A DNA stretch of 45,615 nucleotides, from positions 1 to 45,615 of the forward strand of contig CAZNJA010000003.1 in the NCBI GenBank assembly GCA_964573245.1, read 5' to 3'. Each line of letters starts with the position of its first letter. The first letter of the stretch is position 1. Position numbers and translations under genes: made by a program. Shown piece by piece: positions 4,216 to 39,666 of the stretch. The notes under the pieces are model-generated. The model was not told where the DNA came from, ran no database searches, and was given only the letters and a program-made list of their open reading frames with translations. The DNA comes from an uncultured bacterium (lineage in GTDB: Bacteria > CAIJMQ01).

Positions 4216-4486
4216 GATTACGGAGATTTCCCCCCTAGAAATCTGCCCTCTGCAATTTGCACCCTGAAATTTCAGAGAAATTTCGGGTACTTAGTCCTTG
4301 AAATGCTTTGCATTTCTAAGGGAAAAATTGCGAGGACTAAAGTCCCGGGAATGCTCCGCATTCCACGGGGAAAGATTTCAGGGACTTTGGTCCTTGAAAT
4401 TCTACGAATTTCTAAGGGTAAAAACGATTACAGTGATTAAGAAAGAAAAAAATCTGTGTAATCTGTATCTAATAATCCGTGTAATC
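4216..4486. repeat. family B 13-mer cluster (2 direct + 2 inverted arms) interrupted by a structured element
   Basis: GATTACGGAGATT 4216, GATTACAGTGATT 4426, AATCTGTGTAATC 4451, AATCCGTGTAATC 4474. Confidence 0.85.
4230..4420. repeat. divergent family A-like element containing 48-nt tandem hairpin units
   Basis: CCCCCCTAGAAAT...ATTTCTAAGGGTA ends; GTCC-initiated units at 4294, 4342 and 4390. Confidence 0.75.
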
Positions 4487-4498
4487 AGTTTTCCCCAA

Positions 4499-5056
4499 TT
4501 AAAATTTCACTTTAGGGACTGCTTTTTCCTTTTGGTCTTCCACTTGGAAGAACTCTTCGGATTTGAAACTGAACATGCCGGCTATAATGTTTGAAGGAAC
4601 CATCTGGATTTTGTTGTTAAAGAAAAGGACCTGGTCATTATAATTCTGCCGCGCAAAAGCTATTTTGTTCTCCGTAGAAGTCAGTTCTTCCTGAACAGCC
4701 AAAAAGTTTTGATTTGCTTTCAGGTCCGGATAATTCTCCACAACGAGAAAAAATTTACTCATAGCGCCGCTTAATGCACCCTCAGCTTTAGCTTTATCAC
4801 CTACACTCTGGGCACCCATTGCATCACTTCTTGCTTTGGTTATGTTTTCAAGTGTTCCCCTTTCATGCTGCATATATCCTTTTGCCGTTTCTACCAGATT
4901 GGGTATAAGGTCATGCCGCCTTTTTAATTGCACATCTATTTGAGACCACGCGTTCTTAACCTGATTCCTCAAACCCACGAGAGAATTGAAAATTCCCACA
5001 ACAAACAAAACTACCACAACAACCACTACAAGTAAGACTATTACTGCAATACCCAT
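4499..5056 (-). CDS. lemA: LemA family protein
   Basis: N-terminal [43 protein letters not shown]. Confidence 0.97.
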
Positions 5057-5069
5057 ATTAACCTCCCTC

Positions 5070-5100
5070 GTCCGCCGAAGCCCAAAAAGCGAAGGCGGAC
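5070..5100. repeat. REP-like GC-rich hairpin
   Basis: GTCCGCC-GAAGCCCAAAAAGCGAA-GGCGGAC between the upstream stop and the lemA SD. Confidence 0.65.
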
Positions 5101-5104
5101 CTAA

Positions 5105-5491
5105 TTACGATTTCTTGAACATATCCTTGAGCAAATCCAACACTTTATTCTCTTTACCAAAACTTCCCATTTTAATTATTTTTTCAAGTTCTCCCAAATC
5201 AAACCAGATACCGTCATTCTGGCGGCATTTATCTATAAGGATATTTTTCTCGCTACCATAGATAACTTTGTCCATTCTCTTTAAACATACAGGACAGTTT
5301 CTAACTTTTTCTTTTGTATGCTTATCTACCTGAAAAGAAATAAGGAACCTATCCTTTTCCGTAGAAGTTCCCAACAAAAGCTCCAATTCACCCCCATCAA
5401 GCCATATTCCGCCGCACGAGATGCAATGGTCTATCTCTACCTCATCAAGTTCCAGTACAATCATCGGCTCTTTACATACAGGACAATTCAT
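5105..5491 (-). CDS. tandem zf-TFIIB-type zinc ribbon protein
   Basis: two CPVC...ID.C...GIW.D.GEL repeats. Confidence 0.88.
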   Translation of the reverse strand: MNCPVCKEPMIVLELDEVEIDHCISCGGIWLDGGELELLLGTSTEKDRFLISFQVDKHTKEKVRNCPVCLKRMDKVIYGSEKNILIDKCRQNDGIWFDLGELEKIIKMGSFGKENKVLDLLKDMFKKS

Positions 5492-5503
5492 TTAAATTCT
5501 CCA

Positions 5504-7045: not shown

Positions 7046-7064
7046 ATTTTATTCAAAATTATTT

Positions 7065-7640: not shown

Positions 7641-7743
7641 TCTAATACCTCCCTGTTTTTACAATAGAATTCTACCAAATGGAGATATTAAAACCAATTA
7701 AAAAGCTATTTTTGCTTGAGGAAAGATAAAAACGGAAAAATTA

Positions 7744-8817: not shown

Positions 8818-8953
8818 AAGAACCCTCTTTTGTTTTTACCTTTGAATTATAACATCTTAGTCAACTCTCTAAGTTGCTATTTCAAATATTACAAAGGGAT
8901 ATTTAGGAGCTAATTCCACTTCATGGTTTACAGGAGCGATGGATATATGATAT

Positions 8954-10517: not shown

Positions 10518-10589
10518 TAAAAAGAGTAATACTAATTTACAATATGCGCCCTAAAACCCTTTTATGTATTTTGGGTTAAGAAATGATAA

Positions 10590-10795
10590 TTGTAATTTGG
10601 ATATTGGGATTCCCGCCTGTCAATATTGGCGGACAGGTATTTGGTTATTGTTTCTTGTGTCTTGCCCGCCTTGCAGAGCAAAGCGAGGCAGGTATCTTGC
10701 AATTTAATTGGAAACTGGTAATTGCTAATTGAATATTGGAAATTGTTTGCTTCTTGTATCTTAGAATTTACTTGAAAATTGACAATTGTTAATTT
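10590..10795. repeat. degenerate heptamer (TTGNNNN) array with two family C inserts
   Basis: TTGGAAA CTGGTAA TTGCTAA TTGAATA TTGGAAA...; inserts at 10612-10637 and 10665-10692. Confidence 0.8.
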
Positions 10796-11795
10796 AAACT
10801 TGAAGTAGTTTCTTAACTCTCCCCACATCCTCTGCAATCTGTTTTTGGGCGTCCTGGCGGGTTTTGAAAATTATTCGTGAGCGCAGTTTCTTAAAGAATA
10901 CAATTTCTACTTCCTTGTGATAAATATTTTCTTTTAATCCTATAACGTGGGCTTCTATTAATCTCTTTGGCTGGGTTGTTACGAAGAAGGCTGTTTTGCT
11001 CGCCCCGTTAGAAGTAAGTCCCGATTTTACCTGCTTCGCCTTCGTCTCATCAAGGCGGGTGTTGGGACTGCCCGCCATTGTATCAGTGGCGGGACTTCTA
11101 ATGGGGTCAACCCTCGCCCAACCCGCATATATGCCCTCAGGGGGCAAAAGTATCTCATCAAAATACATATTTGCCGTGGGAAATTTTATATCCTTGCTCA
11201 TACCCTTGCCTTCGGTTACTTTACCCAAAAGCGAATATTTTCTTCCCAGAAATTTTTCTATTCTTTCAAAACTGCCTTCGGTTATTAAACCCCTTATTTT
11301 TGTGCTGGAGACGGTTTCGCCTTCTACTGTCATAAGAGGGATGGCAGTAACGGAAAATCCAAACTTTTTGCCTTCTTCTTTAAGTAGTTGTATATCTCCG
11401 CGTCTGTCCTTCCCAAAACGGAAATCTTCTCCTATATAGAGTTCTTTTACGTTTAGTTTCTTAGCCAGAATCTTCTCTATAAAATCTTTAGCTTCCATTC
11501 CAACGGCATGTTTATTAAAATCCAGAACAAAAACATAATCTATGCCTAACTGCTTAAAATAATGTAGTTTCTGTTCAAGGGACATAATAAGCAGTTTTCC
11601 GTGTGAATAACTCAATAATTTTAAAGGATGAAACGAGAAGGTAATTACTGCCGAAGGTTCACCTTCGGCTTTTGCTTTTTTAACAAGAGTTTTTATAATT
11701 TTCTGATGTCCAAGATGTACCCCGTCAAAAAAACCTATGGTTAAGAAGATTGGTTCACTCTTTGCATATTCGTCGAAATTATTGAATATTTTCAT
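10794..11795 (-). CDS. ribF: bifunctional riboflavin kinase/FAD synthetase with in-frame insertion
   Basis: IGFFDGVHLGHQ, GEDFRFG, VSST.IR, FPTAN. Confidence 0.93.
   Translation of the reverse strand: MKIFNNFDEYAKSEPIFLTIGFFDGVHLGHQKIIKTLVKKAKAEGEPSAVITFSFHPLKLLSYSHGKLLIMSLEQKLHYFKQLGIDYVFVLDFNKHAVGMEAKDFIEKILAKKLNVKELYIGEDFRFGKDRRGDIQLLKEEGKKFGFSVTAIPLMTVEGETVSSTKIRGLITEGSFERIEKFLGRKYSLLGKVTEGKGMSKDIKFPTANMYFDEILLPPEGIYAGWARVDPIRSPATDTMAGSPNTRLDETKAKQVKSGLTSNGASKTAFFVTTQPKRLIEAHVIGLKENIYHKEVEIVFFKKLRSRIIFKTRQDAQKQIAEDVGRVKKLLQV
11003..11106. mobile_element. family A TIR element (104 nt) in-frame in ribF
   Basis: CCCCGTTAGAAGT...ACTTCTAATGGGG (12/13 inverted match); encodes PIRS...TSNG. Confidence 0.85.
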
Positions 11796-11808: not shown

Positions 11809-11842
11809 GATTGTACCGATTAAAACTCTGATTACACAGATT
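11809..11842. repeat. family B 13-mer pair
   Basis: GATTGTACCGATT 11809, GATTACACAGATT 11830. Confidence 0.75.
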
Positions 11843-11899
11843 AAATATTCTATTGTATAATACCCCGAAAACGACTTCAAAACAATAAGGAGGTCCGTA

Positions 11900-12717: not shown

Positions 12718-13692
12718 TCAGATATCAGGCGAAAAAACACGCATGTGATTTAAAACGATTCCGTTATCTGCTAACTTTTCGAGAGCTTTTTCTTCTCTGA
12801 TGCATTTGGCAACTGAAACAAGTTGTCCGTCTTCCGACATGATTTTGGCAATAAGCCCTTTGCTTAATTCGAAATTTCGAACCGAAATCGTTTTCTTATA
12901 TATCGGAGTCCCGCAAAAAGCGTCTTTTAAAAAATCATTTTTTATTTTAAGTTCGGGCAATTCTTTTAAAGCCGTTTTTATATCGAACAGATAATCTTTT
13001 ATATCTTTTTCGGACAAGATATCCTCAAGTTTTTTCGCATTCTTAATAGAAAAATTCCCGACTTTAGTTCTTCTTAAATCCGTTAAAACCGCTCCGCAGC
13101 GCAGTTGTTCTCCTATATCTTTAACCAAACTGCGTATGTATGTGCCTTTGGAACACGCAACTTTAAACCCTATTTCGAGAGAATTAGACCCCATTAGAGA
13201 TTTCACACTCGCCATTGGGCGAGTTATCTCTAACGAGGCAAGGGAATATATGGTAATTTCCCGTTTCTTTCTTTCGACTTCCTTACCTTTGTGGGCAAGC
13301 TGATAGAGTTTCCTGCCGTTTTGTTTTATAGCGGAATGCATCGGCGGAGTTTGTAAATATGTCCCTGTAAACTTTTTAAATGCAGTTCTTATCCGGGCTT
13401 CACTTACTTTAACGTTCTTGTTTTCCTTTATTACTTTGCCTTCTATATCGCCTGTGTCCGTAACCTTTCCTAAAAGCAAAGTCCCTTCATATTCCTTATC
13501 TTTACCTACCAGAAACTGAACAATTTTCGTGGCTTCATTAAGGCACATTGGAAGAAGTCCCGTAGCCATAGGGTCAAGCGTGCCGAGATGTCCCGCTTTT
13601 TTTATACGAAACTTTCGAGCTATTTTTTCTACAACTTTATAAGAAGTTAATCCTTTCGGTTTATCTACTAAAAGAATTCCGCTGAGCATCAA
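12718..13692 (-). CDS. truB: tRNA pseudouridine(55) synthase with in-frame insertion
   Basis: DKPKGLTS, KAGHLGTLDP.ATG, PP.HSA.K..G..LY, CSKGTYIRSL. Confidence 0.97.
   Translation of the reverse strand: MMLSGILLVDKPKGLTSYKVVEKIARKFRIKKAGHLGTLDPMATGLLPMCLNEATKIVQFLVGKDKEYEGTLLLGKVTDTGDIEGKVIKENKNVKVSEARIRTAFKKFTGTYLQTPPMHSAIKQNGRKLYQLAHKGKEVERKKREITIYSLASLEITRPMASVKSLMGSNSLEIGFKVACSKGTYIRSLVKDIGEQLRCGAVLTDLRRTKVGNFSIKNAKKLEDILSEKDIKDYLFDIKTALKELPELKIKNDFLKDAFCGTPIYKKTISVRNFELSKGLIAKIMSEDGQLVSVAKCIREEKALEKLADNGIVLNHMRVFSPDI
13189..13238. mobile_element. family A TIR element (50 nt) in-frame in truB
   Basis: CCCCATTAGAGAT...ATCTCTAACGAGG; inner hairpin ACTCGCC-ATTG-GGCGAGT. Confidence 0.8.
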
Positions 13693-13704
13693 GAGGAGTC
13701 TCCC

Positions 13705-15063
13705 TTATCTTTTATATACTATTTTATTACTTATCCAAACAACCGGATCCAACACACCCCTTATCGCTTTCTTCAATATCGGATGTTTTCCCACAAACCC
13801 AGCTATTTGGGGAGATGTTTTATAATATGTGTCGACAAAGATTTCTCCTATGGGATTAGTGAGCAAGTATTCATCCCTGAACTCTCTTAAAATATTCACT
13901 TCCGAAGTCATGTGCGAACCATAACATGCCGTGGCTATAAAACACCGTTTTCTGCTTTCTCCATCTCCACTATTATCAAGCCATATCAGTTCCAACCAAT
14001 CAGGTATACCATCTCCATCAGAATCATAGTTCGCATGTAATCCTGTGAAGTCCTGATTAGCCCTGTTGCCGTCGAGAGATATGTAAGAATAATTTTCAGG
14101 AAAGAAGTAATAACCTTCTAATAAAGGAGCAACCATATAGTCCCCCGTTTCCGACCGTCCTGTGAAACCATAATTGCCATCAGCTTCAGGATTTATATCA
14201 ATGTCCGCATCACCGCTTAAATTGAGATTAACGTCCGTAACATCAGCACTGCCACCAAGTAGAGTGACTTGACCGGAAATAATATAGGGAATATCTTCAA
14301 GCCCATTTCCCAAGTTGTAAAGTTCAGCAATTTCGTCAAGAGAAAGTGCTTTATTGAAAATCATTACGTTATCAAGAGAACCCTGAAAATTATCTCCGGT
14401 TGACCCCATGTAATTTATGGCTCCTATAAACAAATTAAAATTATTTGAATAATTTGCCATTACGCAGGTGGCAGTCTTTGTTCTCGACACTTGCGAACCA
14501 TCTTCACAGTACACAGAAGCAGAGATTGTGGTAGGTGATATTTGTTTGACGACTATTGTCCACATCGTCCAAGTACCGAGAGGTGGAAGACCCGCAGCAA
14601 AGGCTGTGGTTTCTGTCCAAATTTGATTGCTATCTGCGACATAACTAATAAAAGCACTATGCCAAGTAGTGTCAGTACCAAAACGAATTCCATTTCCATC
14701 ACCTCCGTCTGTACATGCAATAGTTTGTGTGCCACCGACATTTTCCTCTTTTACCCAAGCGACGATGCTAAAGTCACTCTGGAAAACTGATTGAAATGCA
14801 TTCCCCGTGTCAATGTAATCAGTAGTACCATTAAAATTAAAAGCTCCGTTGATTTTGCCGGTTGTATTAAGCACAGAAGTATTTTGCTGCGCTGTTCCAT
14901 CTGCATAACCCTGGCTATCAATAACTATATCATTGGTAGCATTGTCGTTCATCTTGTAATGAGCAACCAGATTATTTCCCAACGGCTGACCTGATAGGTT
15001 TTGATTTATTAATCCCACAATTGTGCAAAAAAATAAAATTGTAATAATTCTATTTTTATTCAT
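13705..15063 (-). CDS. secreted LamG-like jellyroll protein with CFI-box C-terminal domain
   Basis: signal peptide, LVAHY...F.G..DYI, F.G.LD.V.IFN.ALS..EI, DSDGDG, CFIATACYGS. Confidence 0.85.
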   Translation of the reverse strand: MNKNRIITILFFCTIVGLINQNLSGQPLGNNLVAHYKMNDNATNDIVIDSQGYADGTAQQNTSVLNTTGKINGAFNFNGTTDYIDTGNAFQSVFQSDFSIVAWVKEENVGGTQTIACTDGGDGNGIRFGTDTTWHSAFISYVADSNQIWTETTAFAAGLPPLGTWTMWTIVVKQISPTTISASVYCEDGSQVSRTKTATCVMANYSNNFNLFIGAINYMGSTGDNFQGSLDNVMIFNKALSLDEIAELYNLGNGLEDIPYIISGQVTLLGGSADVTDVNLNLSGDADIDINPEADGNYGFTGRSETGDYMVAPLLEGYYFFPENYSYISLDGNRANQDFTGLHANYDSDGDGIPDWLELIWLDNSGDGESRKRCFIATACYGSHMTSEVNILREFRDEYLLTNPIGEIFVDTYYKTSPQIAGFVGKHPILKKAIRGVLDPVVWISNKIVYKR

Positions 15064-15800: not shown

Positions 15801-15802
15801 TT

Positions 15803-15817: not shown

Positions 15818-15826
15818 ATTTCATCT

Positions 15827-15861
15827 GATTACACAGATTTTAAAATAAGATTACAGAGATT
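15827..15861. repeat. family B 13-mer pair
   Basis: GATTACACAGATT 15827, GATTACAGAGATT 15849. Confidence 0.8.
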
Positions 15862-16463: not shown

Positions 16464-17195
16464 TTATGTTTTTATTTTTCCCAATTCTTTCAACTTTAAA
16501 AAACATTTCGCTGTTAATGCAACATCTGTTAAAGCATTATGTTTATCATATAAAGGTTTAAACGAACTAGCATAATCATAAAAACATTTTTTAAAAAGTT
16601 CCATTAGAGTAGGATATTTATAGTCACCATAAGAACTGGGAATTCTACAAAAGTTTGTTCCTATTTTCATAGTACAGATTTTATCCGTTTTCTCTAATTG
16701 TTTCTCAAAACTATTCCTTAAAAATTCGGCTTCCAAGATTGGTACATCAAAATCAATATTATGAGCAACTAAAATTTTTGCTCTTTTAATTGTTTCAATC
16801 AATTTAGTTAAGACAAGTTTAGGGTCAACTCCTTTTTCTTCCATGATTGCATTTGTAATTCCATGTATTGCTGTGGCTTTCGGAGGTATTTTGATATCCT
16901 GTTTTAGAATATATTCGTTGTGGGCTAATAATTTGCCTTCATTATCTAACAGTATCCATGCTAATTGAACAATATGTGGCCAATTATCCAAATTTTCGGG
17001 TTTAGAGTATCTATTTTGGGGAAGTCCTGTAGTTTCAGTATCAATTATAAGATATTTACCTTCAGTTCCGTTAGATTCCTCAAACGTAAGGTCAAGTTTT
17101 TCTGTCCACTCCTTTCTGACTCCCCTCATATCTGTAGATGATTTATAAATAGTAAAGATTGCAATCACTATAATTAACAATAACCAAAAAAACAT
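16464..17195 (-). CDS. DEDDh (DnaQ-like) 3'-5' exonuclease with N-terminal membrane anchor
   Basis: IIDTETTG, VAHNIDFD, HNALTD; N-terminal FFWLLLIIVIAIFTI. Confidence 0.88.
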   Translation of the reverse strand: MFFWLLLIIVIAIFTIYKSSTDMRGVRKEWTEKLDLTFEESNGTEGKYLIIDTETTGLPQNRYSKPENLDNWPHIVQLAWILLDNEGKLLAHNEYILKQDIKIPPKATAIHGITNAIMEEKGVDPKLVLTKLIETIKRAKILVAHNIDFDVPILEAEFLRNSFEKQLEKTDKICTMKIGTNFCRIPSSYGDYKYPTLMELFKKCFYDYASSFKPLYDKHNALTDVALTAKCFLKLKELGKIKT

Positions 17196-17197
17196 TT

Positions 17198-17788
17198 CTA
17201 CCCTTTCTTTTTTCTTTCGAAAATGTTTTTACCTTTACAATCTATTGCAACTATTACGGGGAAATCTTTTACTTCAAGTTCGCGTATAGCTTCGGTGCCG
17301 AGTTGGGGATATGCTATTACTTTTGCTTTTTTTACTTTTGTGGCAAGTAATGCGGCCGCACCACCCACTGCAAGAAAATAAACCGCTTTGTGTTTTTTTA
17401 TCGTTTTTATTACTTCTTCGTTTCTTTTGCCTTTACCAATCATTCCTTTTAAGCCCTTTTCCAAAAGCGGTATGGTATAAGAATCCATTCGCGAACTTGT
17501 AGTAGGTCCGCAGGAACCGATAGGTGCTCCCTCCTTGGCCGGTGTAGGTCCTGCGTAATAAATTATTTGATTTCTTAAATCAAGGGGCAATTTTTTTCTT
17601 TTCTTAATGGATTCCACTATTTTTTTATGCGCCGCATCCCGTGCAGTATATATAGTGCCGGTAATTAATACTATCTCGCCTGTCTTTAGAGAGATAATTC
17701 TATCTTCGTTTAAAGGAGTAGTTAACTTTTTGACTTTTGACTCCTGCCCGCTTCGCAGCAGGCGGGTTTGACTTTTAACTTTTTTCAT
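17198..17788 (-). CDS. class I fumarate hydratase/tartrate dehydratase beta subunit
   Basis: TARDAAH, GPTTSSRM, MIGKG, LGTEA. Confidence 0.93.
   Translation of the reverse strand: MKKVKSQTRLLRSGQESKVKKLTTPLNEDRIISLKTGEIVLITGTIYTARDAAHKKIVESIKKRKKLPLDLRNQIIYYAGPTPAKEGAPIGSCGPTTSSRMDSYTIPLLEKGLKGMIGKGKRNEEVIKTIKKHKAVYFLAVGGAAALLATKVKKAKVIAYPQLGTEAIRELEVKDFPVIVAIDCKGKNIFERKKKG
17724..17782. repeat. TGACTTT heptamer array with 24-nt family C insert (17743-17766), translated
   Basis: removing CCTGCCCGCTTCGCAGCAGGCGGG restores the TGACTTT periodicity. Confidence 0.8.
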
Positions 17789-18627
17789 ATTGTTGCGCTT
17801 TTATACCTCAATAAATAACACGACAAATCCACACATACCGGCAATCCGCCTATATGAGTAGGAAAATCTTTGATACTCACATTTAAAGCGGTTACTTTTC
17901 CGCCAACTCCTTGCGGCCCTATTTCTAATTCATTGATTTTTTTAAGAAGTTCTTTTTCAAGTTTTGCTATTTTTTTATCAGGATTCGTTCTATTAATAGG
18001 TCTTAAAAGCGCCTCTTTTGCTAAAAGCGTAACATTACTCATACTTCCACCCACGCCTATTCCTACAAAAAGCGGAGGACATGCATCCGGCCCTTTTTCT
18101 TTTACAACCTGCAAAACAAAATCTTTGACTCCTTCTAATCCTTGCGAAGGAGTAAGCATTTTTAATTTACCGGCGTTTTCAGAACCAAATCCTTTAGGCA
18201 TTACGGTTATCTTTATTCTTTCGCCCGGTGTAAATTTGTAATGAATAATTGCAGGAGTATTGTTTTTAGTATTAATTCTTTCAAAAAGAGGAGTTCTCAC
18301 AATCGATGCTCTTAATTTTCCTTCTTTTGTCGCTATACTGACGCCTTTATTTATGGCTTCTTCTATATTCCCTTTTACAAAAACATTTCTTCCAAGAGAC
18401 ACGAAAATTTCCTGTATACCCGTGTCTTGACATAAAGGCATTTTCTGTTTTGGGGCTATCTTTATATTCTCAAGCATCTGCTTAAAAATATATTTCCCGA
18501 GTTTAGAAGTTTCTTTGTAAGATGATTGAATAATCGCCTGTTTTACTTGTGACGGTAATTCATAATTAGCTTCTTTTATGAGTTTTGCAATAACGGGGGT
18601 AAATACCTTGGCGGATACTTCTCTCAT
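17785..18627 (-). CDS. class I fumarate hydratase/tartrate dehydratase alpha subunit
   Basis: PLCQDTG, PKGFGSEN, ACPP..VG.G.GG, GPQG.GG. Confidence 0.93.
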   Translation of the reverse strand: MREVSAKVFTPVIAKLIKEANYELPSQVKQAIIQSSYKETSKLGKYIFKQMLENIKIAPKQKMPLCQDTGIQEIFVSLGRNVFVKGNIEEAINKGVSIATKEGKLRASIVRTPLFERINTKNNTPAIIHYKFTPGERIKITVMPKGFGSENAGKLKMLTPSQGLEGVKDFVLQVVKEKGPDACPPLFVGIGVGGSMSNVTLLAKEALLRPINRTNPDKKIAKLEKELLKKINELEIGPQGVGGKVTALNVSIKDFPTHIGGLPVCVDLSCYLLRYKSATI

Positions 18628-18634
18628 TTAACTT

Positions 18635-20140
18635 TTATTTTGGATGACACGCCCGATTGATAGCTTCCAAATATGCTTTAGCAGATGCTTCTATAATGTC
18701 CGTTGAAGCATGCCTTCCCAGAAATTCTTTCCCCTGCACATTAACTTTGACGGCAACTTCGCCTAATGCCTCTTTACCGCCTGTAACCGACTTTATTGAA
18801 TAATCCAAAAGTCGGGTCTTTACTTTTGTGATTCTGTCTATGGCTTTGTAAACAGCATCAACAGGCCCGTCGCCGCATGAGGCCTCTTCCATTATTTTAC
18901 CCTTGTTCTTTATTTCCACAGTTGCAGTTGGAATAGTTTTGTTTCCGGTTACCACGTTCACATACTGTAAGGAATAAGTTTCCGGAACTTTAAAGATTTC
19001 ACCTTCCACAAGCGTTCTTAAATCCTCATCAAAGATTTCCCTTTTCTTGTCTGCCAACTTTAAAAATCTTTCATATGTTTTTTGGAAATCTTTATCTTTT
19101 ATCTTATATCCCAGTTTTTTCAATTTGTCTTCTAAAGCATGTCTTCCCGAGCGCGCAGTCAACACTATTTTATGCCCTTGGACTCCCACGTCCTCCGGTT
19201 TCATTATTTCATAGGTACGCCTGTCTTTTAGAATTCCGTCAACATGAATACCTGCAGAATGCGCAAAAGCGTTGTCACCCACAATGGCTTTATTTGGCTG
19301 CACATATATTCCCGTAAGGCGGGATACAAGCCGCGACGTTTTGTAAATTTCCTTCGTGTTTACATTGGTGTTTTTATTCAAAAGATTTTTTCTTGTATGA
19401 ATTGCCATAACCACTTCTTCTAAGGATGCATTCCCCGCTCTCTCGCCGATTCCGTTCATCGTGCATTCAACCTGTGTGGCTCCGGCTTCAACTGCAGTAA
19501 TGGAATTGGCCGTCGCAAGCCCTAAATCATCATGGCAATGGACAGAAATGACTGCTTTATGTATATTGGAAACATTCTCTTTTATATATTTTATAATTCT
19601 GTACATTTCCATAGGCAAAGCATACCCTACGGTATCAGGTATATTGACAACGGTTGCGCCGGCATCAATCACCGATTCTACAACTTTACACAAGAATTCC
19701 AGCTCCGTTCTCGAGGCATCTTCCGGTGAAAATTCTATATCGCTGGTATATTTCTTGGCATACTTTACTGCCTCGACCGCCATTCTTAGAATTTCTTCGC
19801 GCGCCTTTCCGAACTTGTATTTCATGTGTATTGGCGAAGTTGCCAAAAATACGTGAATCCTGGGGCTTTTTGCTTTCTTAACCGCTTCCCAGCAAGCATC
19901 AATATCTTTTTTTAATGAACGAGCAAGACCGGCAATAGTGCATTTTTTAATTTTGGAAGCCACTAATTTAACCGCTTCTATTTCACCCGGAGAACTTATA
20001 GGAAATCCTGCTTCAATAATATCAACTCCCAATCTTTCCAACTGCTGGGCTATTTCCAATTTACTCCTGGGATTAAATCCACAGCCAGCGGCCTGTTCGC
20101 CTTCTCTTAAACTTGATTCGAATATATATACCTTTTCCAT
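18635..20140 (-). CDS. leuA: 2-isopropylmalate synthase
   Basis: LREGEQ, IEAGFP, HCHDDLGLA, GIGERAGNA, C-terminal GDGPVDA regulatory domain. Confidence 0.93.
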   Translation of the reverse strand: MEKVYIFESSLREGEQAAGCGFNPRSKLEIAQQLERLGVDIIEAGFPISSPGEIEAVKLVASKIKKCTIAGLARSLKKDIDACWEAVKKAKSPRIHVFLATSPIHMKYKFGKAREEILRMAVEAVKYAKKYTSDIEFSPEDASRTELEFLCKVVESVIDAGATVVNIPDTVGYALPMEMYRIIKYIKENVSNIHKAVISVHCHDDLGLATANSITAVEAGATQVECTMNGIGERAGNASLEEVVMAIHTRKNLLNKNTNVNTKEIYKTSRLVSRLTGIYVQPNKAIVGDNAFAHSAGIHVDGILKDRRTYEIMKPEDVGVQGHKIVLTARSGRHALEDKLKKLGYKIKDKDFQKTYERFLKLADKKREIFDEDLRTLVEGEIFKVPETYSLQYVNVVTGNKTIPTATVEIKNKGKIMEEASCGDGPVDAVYKAIDRITKVKTRLLDYSIKSVTGGKEALGEVAVKVNVQGKEFLGRHASTDIIEASAKAYLEAINRACHPK

Positions 20141-21595: not shown

Positions 21596-21720
21596 TTTTA
21601 GTTTTAATTTGTCATTTTGTCCCGAAGCTCCGACGTAACATCGGAGTTCGGGATTCCTTGGGAACATTTTGAATTTTCAATATGTATATTTAATTTTTGA
21701 TATTTAATATTTGATTTATC
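21596..21720. repeat. T-rich heptamer-like tract with nested hairpin (21620-21653)
   Basis: TCCCGAA-G-CTCCGACGTAACATCGGAG-TTCGGGA. Confidence 0.7.
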
Positions 21721-21722
21721 TT

Positions 21723-26778: not shown

Positions 26779-26915
26779 CCCCGTTAGAGATAGGTCGCCA
26801 TTATGTCTATTATGTATGGCGACCGTAACTTCTCGGGAGTATTTGTATGTCACTTTTTATCTCTTTCATTTTGAACAATGCAATCCAAATCTTATCGCCA
26901 TTATCTCTAACGGGG
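26779..26915. mobile_element. family A TIR element (137 nt) at the aroQ/argH junction
   Basis: perfect 14-bp TIR CCCCGTTAGAGATA/TATCTCTAACGGGG; inner hairpin GGTCGCCAT...ATGGCGACC; supplies the aroQ TAG. Confidence 0.88.
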
Positions 26916-27347: not shown

Positions 27348-27379
27348 TTTAAAGACTCCATTTTAGAATAATATAAACT

Positions 27380-27439
27380 GATTACACAGATAAAACCAAA
27401 TTTTTAATCGGTGTAATCTTTTTAAAAATCCGAGTAATC
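27380..27439. repeat. family B 13-mer cluster
   Basis: GATTACACAGATA 27380, AATCGGTGTAATC 27406, AATCCGAGTAATC 27427. Confidence 0.8.
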
Positions 27440-27480
27440 TTGTTACACCACCAATTAAAGCAGAAACACCGATTTCTTGC

Positions 27481-27510
27481 AAACCCTGAACCACATAGGA
27501 TTCAGGGTTT
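27481..27510. repeat. hairpin element AAACCCTGAACCA-x-GATTCAGGG, copy 1
   Basis: 10-bp stem; same arms at 30066-30108. Confidence 0.75.
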
Positions 27511-27537
27511 GTCTCGCCAATGTTTAGTGGCGGACAA

Positions 27538-29394
27538 TCATTTTTCACCCAAATCGCGCATTCGCTTGTTTATTTCCTCCTCCAGGGAAGCATCATATTT
27601 CAATGCCATATCATACTGTTTGGCAGCTTCTTCTTTTTTCCCAAAAACCATATATACATCTCCATAAACAAGATAGTTATAACCTAAGGTCGGATAAAAA
27701 GAAACTGCTCGCTTTATATATTCCATCGCCTCATCTTCGTCGTTTCTAAGCAAACTTGCCATCAACGCCAACTCTCTCCAATAAAAAGAGCGATATTTAT
27801 CATGCTTAACCGCTTGCTTTAAATGCCGTAATATTTCACTGGAAAAATCTTTTCTCTCTTCTATCATCTTTTGCTTATACATTTGGCTCAACAAATAATG
27901 GTAACCCATCCTATATTCGTCTTCCCCAAAAGTCCAATAACGGGTGGAAAGCTTCAATTCTTCTATGGCTTCATTTATATTTTTAGACTTCTTCATTGCT
28001 TCCAAATAATGTCCTTCGGCCGCAAAGACTCTAAAGAGCAGAACAAAAACAAAAACCGATACAATAAATAACGGCACAAAAAGCGCTTTCTTGTTTTTGA
28101 TTTTCTTTTCTTCATAATTCACGCCCAACGAAACGCCAATAATCATAAAAAGCACGGAGGTTACGCTAAAAACATACAAACTGAAGTCTCCCAAAGAATG
28201 CAGAATAAAAGATAAAACCGAAAGATAACCTCCGCAAACAAAAATTTTCTGAATTGATGAAAGGTTGTCGAAGTTTTTCATCTTCCTATTCATCTGCTTA
28301 AAGAAAAAAACAAAAACGCTCAAAAACAACAAAAAACCCGCAATTCCGAGTTCGGCCCAAATCTGTAGAAAATTATTATGCGCCATTTGTGTCTCTTCAG
28401 CGTTAAACAACTTGTATTTCGCGTAAACCCTGCCGAAACTGCCCAATCCAAAACCAGTAAGAGGCCTTTCCTTAAGCATTTCCAAACCCGCGCGCCAATA
28501 TTCTACTCTTACCTCCAAAGAGTCTTTGAGCGGTTGAACCTTCTCAGCGACATATTTATCGTTATAGACGTAAAATATTACAAAAGCAACCAAAAAAATA
28601 AACGCAATCGCTGCTATTGTTCTGCGCGACTTCGGCACTTTAAACAGCAAAAACAAAAGCCATGAAAGGATCAAAACAAGCATCCCGCCTTTTGAAAAAG
28701 TCAAAACAAACGCAAAAAGAATAAGTAGAGAGAGTGCGGAAAAAATTACTCTCTTTACATTGTTTTCCCTGTCGCAAAATACGGCAGAAAAGACCGCAAA
28801 CGGCAGAACCATCATAAGGAAAGTAGCTAAAGTGTTGGGATACAGAAAGGTGGAAAAAGCTCTGTCAGTATAAAGCCGAGACATGAAATCCTCATGAGCA
28901 GTAATTGGTGCTTCCGCCCTATAAATAAGAAGGTATTGACGAGTCTGCTCCAACCCCCAGAAATACTGATGGACCGCATAAATTGATACCAGGAAAGTAG
29001 AAAATAACAAAACCCAAAGAAACTTTTCCCTGCTTTTATCATCGCCTGCCGTATTAAAACAGATAAAAAAGGCAAACAAATAAAACACGAAATATGAAAT
29101 TTGAGTAAAAGTTGCGGGAATGCTTACAGTCCATAAAAACGACAGCGCACTCCAGAGAAGAAACAATCCTAAAGGCAAATACAGAGAGTTGCTCTTTACC
29201 AAACTGTGTTTTTCCCTAAATGAAAAAATGCCAAGCCAACAAACAAAAAGAAACAACAAAAAAATAGTATAGACGATTATAAGTTGCGACAAATTTAAGA
29301 ATTCGCAAAAAGATATTGGAAGCCTTCCAAGCGGAATGACAAACAGCAAAAACAAAATCCCGATATATATAAATTTGAATTTATTTCCAGCCAT
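27538..29394 (-). CDS. O-antigen ligase family protein with C-terminal TPR
   Basis: many TMs, T.S.GG, R..YW.......P..G.G.G.F, AHN.FLQ..AELG. Confidence 0.9.
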   Translation of the reverse strand: MAGNKFKFIYIGILFLLFVIPLGRLPISFCEFLNLSQLIIVYTIFLLFLFVCWLGIFSFREKHSLVKSNSLYLPLGLFLLWSALSFLWTVSIPATFTQISYFVFYLFAFFICFNTAGDDKSREKFLWVLLFSTFLVSIYAVHQYFWGLEQTRQYLLIYRAEAPITAHEDFMSRLYTDRAFSTFLYPNTLATFLMMVLPFAVFSAVFCDRENNVKRVIFSALSLLILFAFVLTFSKGGMLVLILSWLLFLLFKVPKSRRTIAAIAFIFLVAFVIFYVYNDKYVAEKVQPLKDSLEVRVEYWRAGLEMLKERPLTGFGLGSFGRVYAKYKLFNAEETQMAHNNFLQIWAELGIAGFLLFLSVFVFFFKQMNRKMKNFDNLSSIQKIFVCGGYLSVLSFILHSLGDFSLYVFSVTSVLFMIIGVSLGVNYEEKKIKNKKALFVPLFIVSVFVFVLLFRVFAAEGHYLEAMKKSKNINEAIEELKLSTRYWTFGEDEYRMGYHYLLSQMYKQKMIEERKDFSSEILRHLKQAVKHDKYRSFYWRELALMASLLRNDEDEAMEYIKRAVSFYPTLGYNYLVYGDVYMVFGKKEEAAKQYDMALKYDASLEEEINKRMRDLGEK

Positions 29395-29404
29395 TACTCT
29401 AATT

Positions 29405-30001
29405 TTATACCAAATCGATTTTTAAATCCCAACGATTTTTTGCTTCTTTAAGCATTTTGAGAATCTTTTCGATAGGAAGCCCCACCACATTATAATAATC
29501 GCCTTTAAGCCACTCCACGAATTTATCCCCTTTCTCCTGAACCGCATAACTTCCCGCCTTGTCCCTGCCTTCGCCGCTTCGAACATAATTTTCTATCTGG
29601 TCATCGGTAATATCACCCTTCATTTTTACCTCTGTGGCTTCACTGTCAATAAGGCAGATATTTTTATCTTTGCATAAAATCGCCATTCCGGTAATAACCT
29701 TCTGAACAGTCCCTCTGAATGTCTTTAAAAACCTTATTGCTTCTTCGTCATCTTTAGGCTTGCCATATAAAACCCCTTCCAATTCAACAACTGTATCCGC
29801 TCCGATAACAAGCGCTTTTGGGTGTTTTTTTGCTACTATCTCGGCTTTCATTAAGGCAAGTTTTTCTGCAATTTTGCAAGAGTCATTTTGATTATCCATG
29901 ATATTTTCATTGATATCAGCAGGAACAATCTCAAAATCTTTGATAATTTTTTTTAGGAGTTTTTTTCTTTGAAAAGAAGCAGACGCAAGAATTATTTCCA
30001 T
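29405..30001 (-). CDS. maf: Maf family nucleotide pyrophosphatase
   Basis: ILASAS..R..LL, GADTVV, GKP, DKAGSY, NVVGLP. Confidence 0.95.
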   Translation of the reverse strand: MEIILASASFQRKKLLKKIIKDFEIVPADINENIMDNQNDSCKIAEKLALMKAEIVAKKHPKALVIGADTVVELEGVLYGKPKDDEEAIRFLKTFRGTVQKVITGMAILCKDKNICLIDSEATEVKMKGDITDDQIENYVRSGEGRDKAGSYAVQEKGDKFVEWLKGDYYNVVGLPIEKILKMLKEAKNRWDLKIDLV

Positions 30002-30065
30002 CAGGGAGAATTATATCAAAAGCAGCAATTGATAGAATGAATTAAGGATGATAGAATTCAATTTG

Positions 30066-30108
30066 AAACCCTGAACCAGTCCCGACGTAACGTCGGGACG
30101 ATTCAGGG
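30066..30108. repeat. hairpin element copy 2 with nested GTCCCGACGTAACGTCGGGAC
   Basis: arms identical to the 27481 copy; inner core shared with 21630-21644. Confidence 0.75.
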
Positions 30109-30125
30109 CGAGAAGGAGGCAGACT

Positions 30126-30935
30126 TTGATAGATAGAAAAATCGGGATAATCGGCTGCGGAAATATGGGAGAAGCATTACTATCCGGATTATTAAATAAG
30201 AATATATTTGATAAGAAAAACATTACGGCAAGCGAAAAGCAGGAAGAACGGTTAAAATTTCTTAAGCAGAAATATCCCCAAATAATACTTTCCAAAGATA
30301 ACCAATCTCTGGTTACAAATTCTTCCGTAATAATACTTGCCATAAAACCACAGGATATGGAATCTCTACTTAAAGAAATATCTACATCGTTAACTGCTTC
30401 ACACCTAATAATATCAATAGCTGCGGGAATAAAACTTTCATTTCTAGAAAAAACCGTTAATAAACAAATACCTGCGGTTAGAGTTATGCCGAATCTACCC
30501 GCTTTAATAGGCGAAGGTATTTCTGCCTATTGTGTATCCGATACGGTATCAAAAGAAAATGAAGAAATAATAGAAGAAATATTGGGAAGTCTAGGAAAAG
30601 TAATCAAAATGGAAGAAGATAAATTGGATGTTGTAACAGCTCTATCCGGCTCTGGACCCGCTTATGTATTTTACATGTTGGAGGCTATGATAGAAGCAGG
30701 AATTAAACTGGGACTTACAGAAAAACAGGCAAAAAATCTTTCTGTTCAGACCATAATTGGCGCGGCAAAAATGATAGAAAGGGGAGAAAACCCCGCTATT
30801 TTAAGAGAAAAGGTAACTTCTCCTAAAGGAACAACTGAAGCCGCACTGAAAGTTTTAATTGATAGTAAATGGAAAGAAATCCTAATTAAGGCAATTGCAA
30901 AAGCGGAAGAAAGAAGCAAGGAATTGTCTAAATAG
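30126..30935 (+). CDS. proC: pyrroline-5-carboxylate reductase
   Basis: IG.GNMG, SIAAG, RVMPN, TALSGSGPAY, VTSP.GTT. Confidence 0.96.
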   Translation: MIDRKIGIIGCGNMGEALLSGLLNKNIFDKKNITASEKQEERLKFLKQKYPQIILSKDNQSLVTNSSVIILAIKPQDMESLLKEISTSLTASHLIISIAAGIKLSFLEKTVNKQIPAVRVMPNLPALIGEGISAYCVSDTVSKENEEIIEEILGSLGKVIKMEEDKLDVVTALSGSGPAYVFYMLEAMIEAGIKLGLTEKQAKNLSVQTIIGAAKMIERGENPAILREKVTSPKGTTEAALKVLIDSKWKEILIKAIAKAEERSKELSK

Positions 30936-37046: not shown

Positions 37047-37190
37047 GACTTTTGAAAACAAACTCATATAAAACCCGTATAATCGTAAAATTCGATAGTT
37101 TCGAGAAATAAGTGTTGAAGTTTATTCAAAATAACTTATAATGAAAAAGGTGAATTCCCGTTTTAAAATTTACGGGGGATTTAATATCAA

Positions 37191-37451
37191 GTGTTTAAAA
37201 AAGATAATTCCATGCCGGACCAAAAGAAATTTCAAGGCGAGATAAAAATCGACGAAGAGAAGTGCAAAGGTTGTAAAATTTGCGTTAACTTCTGCCCTAA
37301 CGGGGCCATCGGAATATCAGAGAAGATAAATAAAAAAGGAGTTTACCCTGTCCAAATAAAAGACAAAGGCAAATGCACAGGATGCGGGATTTGTTTTCTT
37401 GTGTGTCCTGATGTGGCTATAGAAATCTACAATGAACCCCGTAAGAAATAG
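37191..37451 (+). CDS. 2[4Fe-4S] ferredoxin-like delta subunit of 2-oxoacid:ferredoxin oxidoreductase
   Basis: CKGCKICVNFCP and CTGCGICFLVCPD. Confidence 0.9.
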   Translation: MFKKDNSMPDQKKFQGEIKIDEEKCKGCKICVNFCPNGAIGISEKINKKGVYPVQIKDKGKCTGCGICFLVCPDVAIEIYNEPRKK

Positions 37452-39558
37452 GCTCCAACATAACATGAAACCTGTATCCCATGAACACAGCAATACCACC
37501 GACAAACCACAAAGCAAATATCAAACAATTTCTAACGGGGTGAACCCCAAACAAAAGAACAAACAGAGTAAAAGCCTTCTTCTTTCCTGGCAGGGAGCGC
37601 TTTCTTTACTCATTTTGCTCTGGGCCGCCCTGCTGCTAAAAGGCATATTGGCTTCAAACAACAATGAAATTTTTGCGTCTTTATGGCTGCAGTTTTTCTA
37701 CATAATCTGGCACATATTCGCTCTCATATTATTAGTTTTTCTTTGTTGGGGATTAGGCAGGAAAATCTCTAAAGGTTTAAAAATCTCTTATTCGGCTCTT
37801 TCGGAAGAATTTCCTTTTGCAACTTCGTTAGGATTAGGCGCTCTTTCCCTTATCATACTTATTCTGGGAGCAATAAAACTTTTCCATCCCACGGCAGTAT
37901 ACATAATAACTCTTGTTGTTCTTATATTAGTAATCGGGGAACTAAAAGAAATCACCTGCCACATCCGTAAATCCTGGGAAAAAACAAAAGACATCAAGTT
38001 AGATGTCATATCAACTATAACTTTGTGCTTAATAGGATTGACAGCCTTAATACTTTTAACCGGGGCTTTTACTCCGCCCATCTCTTATGACGGGCTTGCT
38101 TATCATTTGGGCGTGCCAAAAACTTATATCAACGAATACGGCATTGTTTCCCTGCCTTATCATGTTTATTCAAATTTTCCTTTCAATATGGAAATGCTTT
38201 ATGCCTATTCCATTCTTCTTACAGGTAATGAAATTCTCGCAAAAATGCTCCATTTTTTGGCAGCTATACTGATATGTTTTGCGCTTTATTCTTTCGGGAA
38301 AAAATATTTCGACCAAAAGATCGGCATTTTATCAGCAGCAATATTCATAAACATTCCACTCGTAGGCCAACTGTCCGCGACTTGTTATAACGATTTGGGG
38401 CTGGCATTATTTATGGTTTTATCAGTATTCGCCTTTATAAACTGGCTTTCGTCCCCCGGCAAAGAAAAGTCCGGTTGGCTGCTTTTGTGCGGTATTTTGA
38501 CAGGACTTGCCCTGGGAACGAAATATTTTGCCATTACATTCCTGTTTATATTTCTTATCCCGGCCATTGGAATTGCGAGCATATTATCCCCGGACTCAAA
38601 ACGCAGAACTTTTTGCCTAACCAAAAATTTAATATTATTTGCGGGTTCGGCTTTTTGCGTATTCCTGCCCTGGATGCTGAAAAACCTAATTATTACGGGA
38701 AATCCGGTTTTTCCCTTCGTTTACCCCATATTAGGAGGCGGAAATTGGACAACAGCCCATTACCAAAGATTCCTAAACGTGCATTTGCCCAATATATTTA
38801 CATTCAAAGAATTTTTCCTCCAATTATGGAAACTTCTCTCAAACCACATGTTCGGCTCATCTTTTGCTTTTGTCCTGCCTCTTCTTTTTATCCTGAAAAA
38901 AATAGACTCAAAAATAAAAATTCTGCTTATCTACGCCTCATACTATTATCTGATATGGTTTTTCTTTACACACAGGGTAGATAGATTTATCATGCCCATA
39001 TACGTCTTTCTATCACTCATAGTCGCATACACCTTGTTCCATCTGCCCAAGATATTAAGAACATTTGCAGGGAGCCTGTTAACAATATTTATTGCTTTCA
39101 ATCTGTTTACCCTTATGGTTATCGCAGAAAACAGCGACTTTGCAAAAGCATTTACCAGCATAAAGAGCAAGGAAACGTATTTGGAAGAAAATTTATATTA
39201 TTATCCCGCGATAAAATACATCAATGAAAAACTGCCGCATTCGAGTAAAATCCTTTTTGTGGGAGATAACCAGACTTATTATTGCGAAAAACCGCTTGTT
39301 TCGAATTCGCCTCTGGACAAAAACATAATAGTGGAAACAGTCCGCAACTCAAAAAACGGCGAGGATGTAAAAAACAAATTGAAAACCATGGGAATAACGC
39401 ATATTTATTACAACAGTTCGGAAGTTAAAAGAACACAGGATACGTACCGCAGTTTTGACTGGAGCGACAAAGAAGAATATACTTTTATTGATTTCATAGA
39501 AAATTACACGCAAAAAATATTTGAGAAAAACGGATGTATTATATTCGAAATAAAATAA
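37432..39558 (+). CDS. polytopic GT-C-type (ArnT/PMT-like) glycosyltransferase
   Basis: many TMs, YD...YHL..PK, G...G.A...KY, PW..KN...TGNP.FP. Confidence 0.75.
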   Translation: MNPVRNRLQHNMKPVSHEHSNTTDKPQSKYQTISNGVNPKQKNKQSKSLLLSWQGALSLLILLWAALLLKGILASNNNEIFASLWLQFFYIIWHIFALILLVFLCWGLGRKISKGLKISYSALSEEFPFATSLGLGALSLIILILGAIKLFHPTAVYIITLVVLILVIGELKEITCHIRKSWEKTKDIKLDVISTITLCLIGLTALILLTGAFTPPISYDGLAYHLGVPKTYINEYGIVSLPYHVYSNFPFNMEMLYAYSILLTGNEILAKMLHFLAAILICFALYSFGKKYFDQKIGILSAAIFINIPLVGQLSATCYNDLGLALFMVLSVFAFINWLSSPGKEKSGWLLLCGILTGLALGTKYFAITFLFIFLIPAIGIASILSPDSKRRTFCLTKNLILFAGSAFCVFLPWMLKNLIITGNPVFPFVYPILGGGNWTTAHYQRFLNVHLPNIFTFKEFFLQLWKLLSNHMFGSSFAFVLPLLFILKKIDSKIKILLIYASYYYLIWFFFTHRVDRFIMPIYVFLSLIVAYTLFHLPKILRTFAGSLLTIFIAFNLFTLMVIAENSDFAKAFTSIKSKETYLEENLYYYPAIKYINEKLPHSSKILFVGDNQTYYCEKPLVSNSPLDKNIIVETVRNSKNGEDVKNKLKTMGITHIYYNSSEVKRTQDTYRSFDWSDKEEYTFIDFIENYTQKIFEKNGCIIFEIK
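37437..37540. mobile_element. family A TIR element (104 nt) at the ferredoxin/GT-C junction
   Basis: CCCCGTAAGAAAT...ATTTCTAACGGGG, TGAA on both flanks; encodes PVRN...ISNG. Confidence 0.85.
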
Positions 39559-39567
39559 TTAAATAAT

Positions 39568-39666
39568 GATTACACTCCTGCCCACTTCGCAGGGAAGCAA
39601 GCAGGTGGGGATTAAAGATTTACTTTTCTAATCTGTGTAATCTGGTATCTGTTAATCTGCGTAATC
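39568..39666. repeat. family B cluster with a 33-nt family C insert (39577-39609)
   Basis: GATTACACT[insert]GATT, AATCTGTGTAATC 39630, AATCTGCGTAATC 39654. Confidence 0.85.

Follow-up and report, generated by a model that had tools for sequence, protein, structure and literature searches.

Nested palindromic repeat families in a bacterial genome related to "Candidatus Ratteibacteria"

The 45,615-nt contig CAZNJA010000003.1 (contig C3 of assembly GCA_964573245.1), which we call the window, carries short palindromes that sit inside other palindromes and, in the gene ribF, inside a reading frame. This raises the question of whether distinct repeat families insert into one another and whether they favor existing repeats or hairpins in doing so, as a first-pass annotation of this DNA had proposed. 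Reading the sequence, we found every hairpin named in that annotation at its place, and the several small families that it distinguished were borne out genome-wide: the window samples a mosaic of at least five co-resident short, noncoding, nonautonomous palindromic families. The observation of nested palindromic families is confirmed. The source genome (G000; 1,456,377 bases in 110 contigs, about 38% G+C) is related to "Candidatus Ratteibacteria" and, by crude open reading frame (ORF) calls, has 1,313 genes and a coding share of 89.4%. It was compared with three other members of its genus (G001, G002, and G003), one further member of its family, and four genomes from its class; G006 and G007 belong to another family of the class, and G010 and G015 to other families outside the class. 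Family distribution was screened across 41 genomes, and orthologue states at window loci were compared, unrooted, in G001 to G003. The z values given below come from folding of single-stranded DNA (ssDNA) with shuffles.

The gene ribF (window positions 10794 to 11795, minus strand) contains a family A element in frame at 11003 to 11106, which adds about 36 residues. The inverted ends of the element, CCCCGTTAGAAGT (11003 to 11015) and ACTTCTAATGGGG (11094 to 11106), enclose two arms. By sequence reading and fold, the first arm is a hairpin at 11017 to 11069, closed by AGTCCCGA (11017 to 11024) and TTGGGACT (11062 to 11069), and the second is a family F hairpin, CCCGCCATTGTATCAGTGGCGGG, at 11071 to 11093. 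Nested in the first arm, on the minus strand, is a 32-nt diverged C-like unit (11029 to 11060) similar to the units at 10665 and at G000 C22:9735. As ssDNA, the insert folds into the nested shape (z = -7.4), and 0 of 200 shuffles were equally stable. The first-pass annotation had described a family C unit in a hairpin in a family A element in the gene; the hairpin, the A element, and the reading frame are as described, and the inner unit is only C-like by our definition: it exceeds the one mismatch allowed in each arm and falls outside the 49 C units counted below.

The relatives hold different states of this site. The ribF insert is present in G000 and G002 and absent from G001 and G003. In G002, the A element at this site lacks a C-like unit and encloses two inner hairpins quite unlike those of G000, and the first arm is found without the inner unit in paralogous A copies at G000 C13:15597 and C39:5024. 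The whole composite is repeated at G001 C11:270625, at G002 C87:3609, and once more in G000, at C22:9709-9812, where it lies in frame within a different ORF. A candidate empty allele, given by a joint from 11030 to 11067 (36 nt reduced to 5 letters, in three runs) whose shorter side has only 28 letters, reproduces the A copy at G000 C39:5024 and was therefore read as a paralogue chimera; the other joints in salt-marsh Logan contigs were also repeat chimeras. A metagenome scan yielded no allele of the ribF element lacking the inner unit, and with RibF it returned two partial loci, both ending short of the insertion site. A second gene, truB (12718 to 13692, minus strand), carries a 50-nt family A element in frame at 13189 to 13238 that adds 13 residues; this insert is found only in G000 and is absent from G001, G002, and G003. 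At the same place, G003 truB has T-type hairpin sequence with its length unchanged.

Genome-wide, GC-rich perfect hairpins number 351, against 111 in block shuffles. (A map of 11-mers with a count of at least 6 was dropped as too lax, as it marked 29% of the genome.) Family A has the ends (T)YACCCCGTTAGARAT and ATYTCTAACGGGGT, with 87 matches of the 10-mer core on both strands of G000 and 53 inverted-end pairs that lie 29 to 176 nt apart; the terminal inverted repeats of the family are 13 to 21 nt long. Its interior is a slot holding one or two GC-rich hairpins, usually with one hairpin beside one end and followed by GTAA, and the hairpin varies among copies (GGTCGCC, GCTCCGACG, GTCCGCCA, GGTCACC, AGAAATGTC, and others), giving at least five types. 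The flanks of A mostly extend the inverted repeat (TTYA...TRAA), and a few are direct (TCAA and TTGA). Of the 53 pairs, 20 lie at a depth of at least 60 nt in an ORF (17 of 51 loci when overlapping pairs are collapsed), and these copies are read only as xPVRN...ISNGV or xPLEI...FLTG, the third frame having a stop (CCC CGT TAG). A elements at G000 C17:24155-24204 and C4:23505-23629 directly precede the GFTLIELLVV motif of pilin-like genes, and the outer A end TTTACCCCGTTAGAA resembles DNA coding for that motif (TTTACCCTAATAGAA).

Family C follows the pattern CCCGCCTGC-loop-GCGGGCAGG, with 27 exact matches in G000; allowing at most one mismatch per arm, which we took as the minimal C unit, there are 49 units of 24 to 52 nt. 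The arms are 4-nt periodic (CCCG-CCTG-CC) and can pair in different ways, as a 9- to 10-bp stem in which a C.A and a T.G pair are fixed or as one of two perfect 6-bp stems slipped by 4 nt. The central region varies from 6 to more than 15 nt, and the sequence is kept more than its stability. An H-type pseudoknot of the interleaved arms was dropped, as the loops crossing the helices would have zero length. Integron attC sites were set aside, since the elements are scattered between core genes as well as within them and G000 and G001 each have only two tyrosine recombinases of about 300 amino acids (aa); a dif/Xer-like reading of C was set aside given the dispersed units and the variable central region. 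Family D (YCCGACGTAACGTCGGR; in the window, CCGACGTAAC(A/G)TCGG) has 47 pattern matches, and further hairpin families are F, G (CCCTGAACC...GGTTCAGGG), T (ACCCCCACACCAAA...TTTGGTGTGGGGGT), and E.

We then scored nesting against chance. Seven of the 49 C units lie within another C unit, where 0.53 was expected from the share of noncoding DNA that C occupies (P = 9e-7), and 14 of 49 lie within A, C, or T, where 2.1 were expected (7 in C, 3 in A, and 4 in the 5' arm of a T hairpin). Compact GC hairpins were inside A in 22 of 152 cases versus 2.4 expected, and a perfect outer stem of at least 7 bp surrounded 5 of the 152 versus 1.3 expected (P = 0.012). Nesting thus exceeds chance where C lies in C and where C or D lies in another family, while the excess for generic outer stems is weak or, with shorter stems, not significant. 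The enrichment of nested over isolated copies that the annotation anticipated is therefore real for particular family pairs and weak as a general preference for stems. All of these counts overstate the number of nesting events because several composites, that of ribF included, were copied as units.

At G000 C5:19822-19901, nesting reaches three levels (F in C in C). Besides three cases in C and two in G hairpins (C3:30069 and C7:35070), D occurs within about eleven A elements and several outer hairpins of other kinds. Where C is nested in C, or D in C or G, the inner unit is found at the apex of the loop. The composite of a T hairpin and C occurs four times, and the D-in-C composite is present in G000, G001, G002, G006, and G007.

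Intergenic sites in the window also differ among the sister species. At 30069 to 30108, a G-type hairpin, CCCTGAACC...ATTCAGGG, holds the D hairpin GTCCCGACGTAACGTCGGGAC (30079 to 30099) in its loop (z = -5.9); the spacer (30002 to 30125) is hairpin free in G001 and G003, has the G hairpin with the loop CAACGT in G002, and, in G000, has D within the loop of this hairpin. A second outer hairpin, TCCCGAA...TTCGGGA at 21620 to 21653, likewise holds a D-type hairpin (21628 to 21646) in its loop (z = -3.6) and is missing from the orthologous spacers of G001 to G003; the annotation was right that D occupies the loops of two different outer hairpins. At 27480 to 27536, a G-type hairpin (27480 to 27511) is followed by a hairpin GTCTCGCCA...TGGCGGAC, the two being un-nested. 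In this spacer (27348 to 27537), the loop of the second hairpin is plain in G000 and holds an F-like hairpin in G002, which has both hairpins; G001 and G003 lack both. The intergenic 137-nt family A element at 26779 to 26915 has the hairpin GGTCGCCAT...ATGGCGACC beside an inverted end; the site is empty in G003, holds a 35-nt A-like remnant in G001, and has other repeats in G002, including a C unit inside a D-like hairpin. The annotation had tied its inference to empty-site alleles in relatives, and empty as well as intermediate alleles exist, since the states of ribF, truB, 30069, and 27511 differ among sister species.

The C units of the window that the annotation placed in repeat arrays are also real. 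One (10612 to 10637, plus strand) is in a spacer of 7-nt periodic repeats, and a variant unit (10665 to 10693, plus strand) lies between TGTCTTG and TATCTTG. A 24-nt-type unit at 17743 to 17766 (minus strand) has AGTCAAA on both sides; this spacer contains C in G000 and G003, as different subtypes, and lacks it in G001 and G002. The spacer from 17700 to 17790 and its orthologues (L018, L020, and L025) have 7-nt tandem repeats in all four species, and the heptamer differs per species (TTGACTT; CGTAATC/ATTACGA; GGTTAAC-like; CGGTGTT-like). A unit of the CCCACC.../...GGTGGG variant at 39577 to 39609 (minus strand) splits a family B 13-mer, interrupting GATTACACT|GATTA, and at the same place G003 has a C unit within a 13-mer, inverted relative to the flanking genes.

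To describe the sites of C, we used 53 units with full flanks in G000 and 51 units from an 860-kb part of G001. Among the bases upstream of the CCCGCC arm, T is found at position -2 in 32 units of each set, A at -3 in 26 and 30 units, and C at -4 in 21 and 22 units, respectively. This amounts to a bias (-4 C, -3 A, -2 T, and -1 C) with no fixed word, to which copied flanks contribute part; in G001, a repeat of 110 to 160 nt encloses four C units, and no ORF was found in the 150-nt repeat around G001 C units. The 7-nt flanks agree at 6 or 7 of 7 positions for 8 of 52 units in G000 (null, 0.4%) and at 5 or more positions for 11 of 52 units in G000 and 10 of 51 in G001 (null, 2.2%). One such flank repeat, CAAAATG, is a plain two-copy duplication, and the remaining cases lie within heptamer arrays; around the nested C copies inspected, there were no 7-nt flanking repeats. 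Many C units directly precede a start codon and adjoin arrays of 13-mers or heptamers.

The two main families are distributed differently across the genomes. Exact A ends number 29 to 75 per genome in G000 to G003 and are present also in G018, G010, and G015, where the 10-mer core has 75, 26, and 21 matches. The A copies of these three genomes are 62 to 110 nt long, resemble miniature transposable elements with inverted repeats (MITEs), and are mostly without GC hairpins, one having a nested insert; G018 has near-identical 94-nt copies with inverted ends that reach about 21 nt. C was found in 7 of the 41 genomes (G000 to G003, G006, G007, and G010), with an identical stem in G006, G007, and G010. 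G018 and G015 thus have A without C, and G006 and G007 have C without A. In IMG/VR, we counted at least 127 C-pattern stretches versus 51 for a reversed control. Many of these matches, in GC-rich contigs, may be due to chance, and only recurrent multicopy types count: identical C types of 24, 27, 33, and 36 nt recur in multicopy contigs, three of which (L128, L136, and L145) have C in C.

Some viral-labelled contigs merit separate mention. In L215 to L241 (for example, L219:10007-13051; GC content, 51 to 55%), C units of 33 or 36 nt lie between direct repeats GGRCACAGA(G), which parallel the heptamer flanks of G000. In L217, inverted C units bracket a 3.7-kb segment whose ORFs have no Pfam family. 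When a 56-nt C unit of a viral contig was searched for in plasmids, no match was found. No transposase domain was present in nine ORFs that adjoin C units of two viral contigs; one of these ORFs has methyltransferase domains, and the other eight belong to no Pfam family.

What process could produce this pattern? The reading that we favor, and to which we give an even chance, is that the units are mobilized in trans, land or survive in loops, single-stranded DNA, or harmless sites, and spread further as composites. In its behavior, family A resembles a MITE, and families C, D, F, G, and T resemble hairpins of the repetitive extragenic palindromic (REP) type. We infer that the units transpose and that accessibility of loops or single strands guides their insertion; the responsible enzyme or enzymes would be encoded outside the assembled genome or be of an unrecognized type. 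New copies would land or survive where the DNA is transiently single stranded and an insertion is harmless, the preferred places being apical loops of hairpins, junctions of short tandem repeats, and, in frame, surface loops of proteins. Nested composites would subsequently spread as units, and copies would exchange inner modules.

In its favor stand the excess of GC-rich hairpins, the nesting above chance with inner units at loop apexes, the in-frame A copies, the differing alleles of the relatives, the spread of composites, the unlike distributions of A and C among the genomes, and the unchanged recovery of the elements in contigs of public runs. Several results weigh against this reading. 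Most C units (35 of 49) are not nested in another GC hairpin and lie in AT-rich spacers, often at 7-nt repeat junctions, and C units on their own are weak hairpins (z = -0.9 to -2.5). With an outer stem of at least 6 bp, 6 of 152 hairpins were enclosed versus 4.0 expected (P = 0.21), which is not significant. The hairpins inside A may be A's own parts rather than insertions, and nested copies are not independent events because composites are copied whole. Contigs of four public salt-marsh runs contained no presence/absence variants, and the unrooted comparison leaves the direction of gain or loss unpolarized. A stem shared as widely as that of C, between families of the class and with genomes outside it, is not usual in REP-type repeats and could mean a conserved function. 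Finally, tolerance in harmless places together with recombination between copies explains much of the pattern equally well.

The search for a mobilizing enzyme adds to this list. The one Y1_Tnp (PF01797) protein of G000 has 436 aa and a membrane segment, and its histidine-hydrophobe-histidine (HUH) motif reads DKVY; G001 has no Y1_Tnp protein despite its 46 exact C units. PF01609, PF00078, and PF13358 were absent from G000 to G003; of these four genomes, G003 alone has PF07282 and G002 alone has PF00665. None of the repeat families was linked to a transposase. As for the G000 protein itself (L001:1429-2739, on C12), its Y1_Tnp-like domain lacks the HUH histidines and is fused to the membrane segment and a C-terminal domain, the latter resembling a neighboring 202-aa secreted protein (L001:299-907).

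Other candidate enzymes were present in the genus. G002 has four genes resembling those for REP-associated tyrosine transposases (RAYTs), with intact HUH and tyrosine motifs, and no A, C, D, or F motif lies within 1.5 kb of them; G003 has an IS200-type gene beside TnpB. G000 and G001 have two PF00589 genes each, with products of about 300 aa. In these two genomes, of which G001 is the relative with the best assembly and holds the most C units, no intact gene of the searched HUH, DDE, TnpB, or reverse transcriptase (RT) families was found, G000 being 93% complete and other transposase families lying outside the search. Neither was a parent insertion sequence (IS) found for family A: no A inverted-end pair more than 330 nt apart encloses an ORF in G000, and the longest such pairs in the relatives span about 270 to 480 nt. 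The annotation had suggested a structure-recognizing enzyme and a search for RAYT, IS200-type HUH, or RT genes flanked by the same repeats. Enriched nesting, centered on the loop for some pairs, lends this idea partial support, but in the genomes searched no HUH, RAYT, or RT gene is linked to or flanked by the repeats.

Insertion could also be blind to structure, with copies surviving only in harmless DNA, so that nesting would reflect tolerance and not targeting. The coding fraction of 0.894, the confinement of in-frame copies to two stop-free frames, the placement of the ribF and truB inserts where orthologues vary in length or sequence, and the weak test for generic outer stems all fit this account. 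It does not lead one to expect that C in C would reach 13 times C's share of noncoding DNA, that the inner unit would sit at the loop apex in three kinds of pair, or that the upstream flank of C would be biased in two genomes, and we consider it unlikely to suffice.

Alternatively, there may have been no dedicated transposition, and template switching and gene conversion among dispersed palindromes, with inverted ends or stems as the homology, may have generated the nested forms. Such exchange would explain how G000 and G002 share the same outer A element in ribF with wholly different inner hairpins, how the A slot came to hold its various hairpin types, and how G003 truB acquired T-type hairpin sequence without a change in length, and it requires no transposase, none having been found. 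It leaves unexplained the first arrival at sites without homology (ribF, truB, and the 30069 spacer), the 7-nt repeats flanking 8 of 52 C units, and the presence of the same families in distant genomes. We regard it, too, as improbable as the sole process.

A further reading is that a conserved but so far unrecognized enzyme, cellular or phage-borne, takes the C hairpin as its substrate and inserts it into transiently single-stranded hairpin loops and slipped 7-nt repeats in bacteria of several phyla; hosts such as G001 would then hold dozens of C copies without a known transposase. This we hold to be distinctly unlikely. Still less probable is that the hairpins are functional sites of a regulon (operators, terminators, or RNA stabilizers) kept by a conserved factor. 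The identical C stem in G006, G007, and G010, the multicopy types of some IMG/VR contigs, the many C units near start codons beside 13-mer or heptamer arrays, and the conservation of C sequence beyond stability would suit such sites. Copies in frame inside genes, C nested in C, and presence/absence differences between orthologues would not; moreover, the reversed control implies that about 51 of the IMG/VR matches are expected by chance, and no Rfam family matches (the window has no match at gathering scores, and 10540 to 11120 gave only chance-level matches). That misassembly of a metagenome bin produced the nested palindromes is scarcely credible: the bin is in 110 contigs and the contigs of relatives often end in A elements, but the same families and nested forms recur in the four separately assembled genomes of the genus, and Logan contigs of public runs, one of which may be the source sample, match 12758 to 14688, 16972 to 18710, 21076 to 22444, and 29234 to 30399 without differences.

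We compared the favored reading with known mobile systems. IS200/IS605 transposition acts on hairpin-defined units and a single-strand target, and the units described here are likewise hairpin defined, with a possible single-strand target. They differ in that G000 and G001 have no intact Y1 enzyme and that the tetranucleotide 5' of the unit is only biased, not fixed; furthermore, HUH insertion of the IS200/IS605 type does not predict 7-nt direct repeats, which flank 8 of 52 C units.

Rickettsia palindromic elements (RPEs) were reportedly described by Ogata et al. in 2000. As with RPEs, palindromic elements here lie in frame in housekeeping genes that remain unbroken: ribF and truB, each compared with three orthologues, have in-frame inserts and insert-free orthologues. 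The likeness considered here is one of behavior; the lineage is unrelated, and the elements here have clear terminal inverted repeats and carry other families inside. RPEs are cited in the parts of PMC3733652 and PMC3184786 on which we draw, and truB is a host gene common to both systems according to the former. The consulted part of PMC3184786 also describes empty sites of MITEs and in-frame repeats, with the Nezha and Chunjie MITEs as examples. Family A shares with MITEs its terminal inverted repeats, its length of 29 to 176 nt without an ORF, and its empty sites in relatives (ribF, truB, and 26779); it may differ in lacking a consistent target duplication, it has no parent IS that we found, and, in this genus, its interior is a slot for exchangeable GC hairpins.

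Another close comparison in print is with REPs, bacterial interspersed mosaic elements, and neisserial mosaics. In the portions of Di Nocera et al. (2013; PMC3733652) used here, REPs are tagged by GTAG or CGTC, are inserted inside larger palindromes in three species, and lie inside genes of many species, truB among them; Neisseria has mosaic clusters of repeats, and CGTC REPs have no dedicated transposase, their spread being left open. Like these repeats, the families here are short, GC-rich, imperfect palindromes that number in the tens, form mosaic clusters, and have copies inside genes (including truB) and inside larger palindromes; as for CGTC REPs, no dedicated transposase is seen (PMC3733652). 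With 49 C units of 24 to 52 nt and 47 D-pattern matches, they fit the REP pattern of many imperfect palindromes of 20 to 40 nt. In contrast to REPs, C begins with CCCGCC and ends with GGCAGG without a GTAG or CGTC tag (D has CGTC inside its stem), no RAYT gene is flanked by the repeats, different families of one class have kept the C stem, nesting reaches three levels, and 7-nt direct repeats flank a subset of C.

Insertion of repeats into palindromes and in frame into genes, truB included, is therefore already in print in the parts of these papers considered. What we describe is a mosaic in which several families of repeats resembling REPs, MITEs, and RPEs coexist in a new lineage and in which the nested states vary among species; the C stem kept across distant genomes and the slot-like modularity of A set the system apart from those described. 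In full-text literature, exclusive of supplements, we found no description of the A, C, or D family and zero occurrences of the A and D strings, and the full-text passages retrieved that name Ratteibacteria included none on repeats. If nesting does reflect targeting, these genomes would be a natural system in which to find an enzyme that recognizes hairpins or slipped repeats and would help to explain how REP-type repeats spread without a visible transposase. Small-genome bacteria related to Ratteibacteria tolerate palindromic insertions in the essential genes ribF and truB, and their intergenic DNA turns over quickly between species. The repeats also break assemblies and inflate ORF calls in such bins.

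The remaining elements of the window are as follows. Four family E hairpins with a period of about 48 nt and GGACT..AGTCC linkers occupy 4229 to 4415 (z = -6.6), between the 13-mers GATTACGGAGATT (4216 to 4228) and GATTACAGTGATTA (4419 to 4432). The left 13-mer belongs to family B (GATTAC..GATT), of which more copies lie at 4419 to 4432 and 4453 to 4498; the B-type word ATCTGTGTAATC occurs 21 times in the genome. The annotation had seen here a family A-like element splitting a B cluster. The arrangement of the 13-mers is real and the label is wrong, as 4229 to 4415 contains no A inverted end; the A copies of the window are only those at 11003, 13189, 26779, 37437, and 42112. The spacer orthologous to the E cluster has two units in G001, two in G002, and none in G003, and E matches are dispersed by the dozen in these three genomes. 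Of the A copies not yet described, one (37437 to 37540) is at the 5' end of the ORF at 37432 to 39558, and the other (42112 to 42179) is at the junction of the ORFs at 41578 to 42120 and 42104 to 43165. The first of these ORFs (708 aa) has a syntenic counterpart in G003 and none in G001 or G002, where about 335 to 370 nt are found.

Several observations concern other repeats. The 13-mers GATTACACNGATTA, with TAATC at 9-nt spacing, stand directly upstream of start codons (4216 to 4228, 4419 to 4498, 11829 to 11845, 15820 to 15837, 27374 to 27424, 39620 to 39667, and 41535 to 41577). They resemble promoter or regulator sites, unlike mobile DNA, and G001 has GTAAT at 7-nt spacing in similar places. 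In G000, overlapping 14-mers joined by eye give a 34-nt word, CTACAATAGTAGAAATTTACTCTGTCTATTAGAC, which is present in about 10 copies and may be a clustered regularly interspaced short palindromic repeat (CRISPR).

Finally, D hairpins appear in copies of tRNA genes. At G000 C14:12660-13620, upstream of tRNA-Val(gac), there are tandem copies of the 5' half in which a D hairpin replaces the anticodon arm, and in one of these copies nested hairpins spanning about 70 nt interrupt the D-loop. Downstream of the same tRNA gene is a pseudo-copy with D and the tRNA 3' half, and the array includes a gap of 100 Ns. Partial tRNA-like copies at G000 C10:26290-26360 and C58:8100-8200, which ARAGORN does not call as normal tRNAs, have a D hairpin as the anticodon arm (8-bp stem and 3-nt loop). 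One of the two adjoins tRNA-Ala(cgc) and has the same T arm and 3' end.

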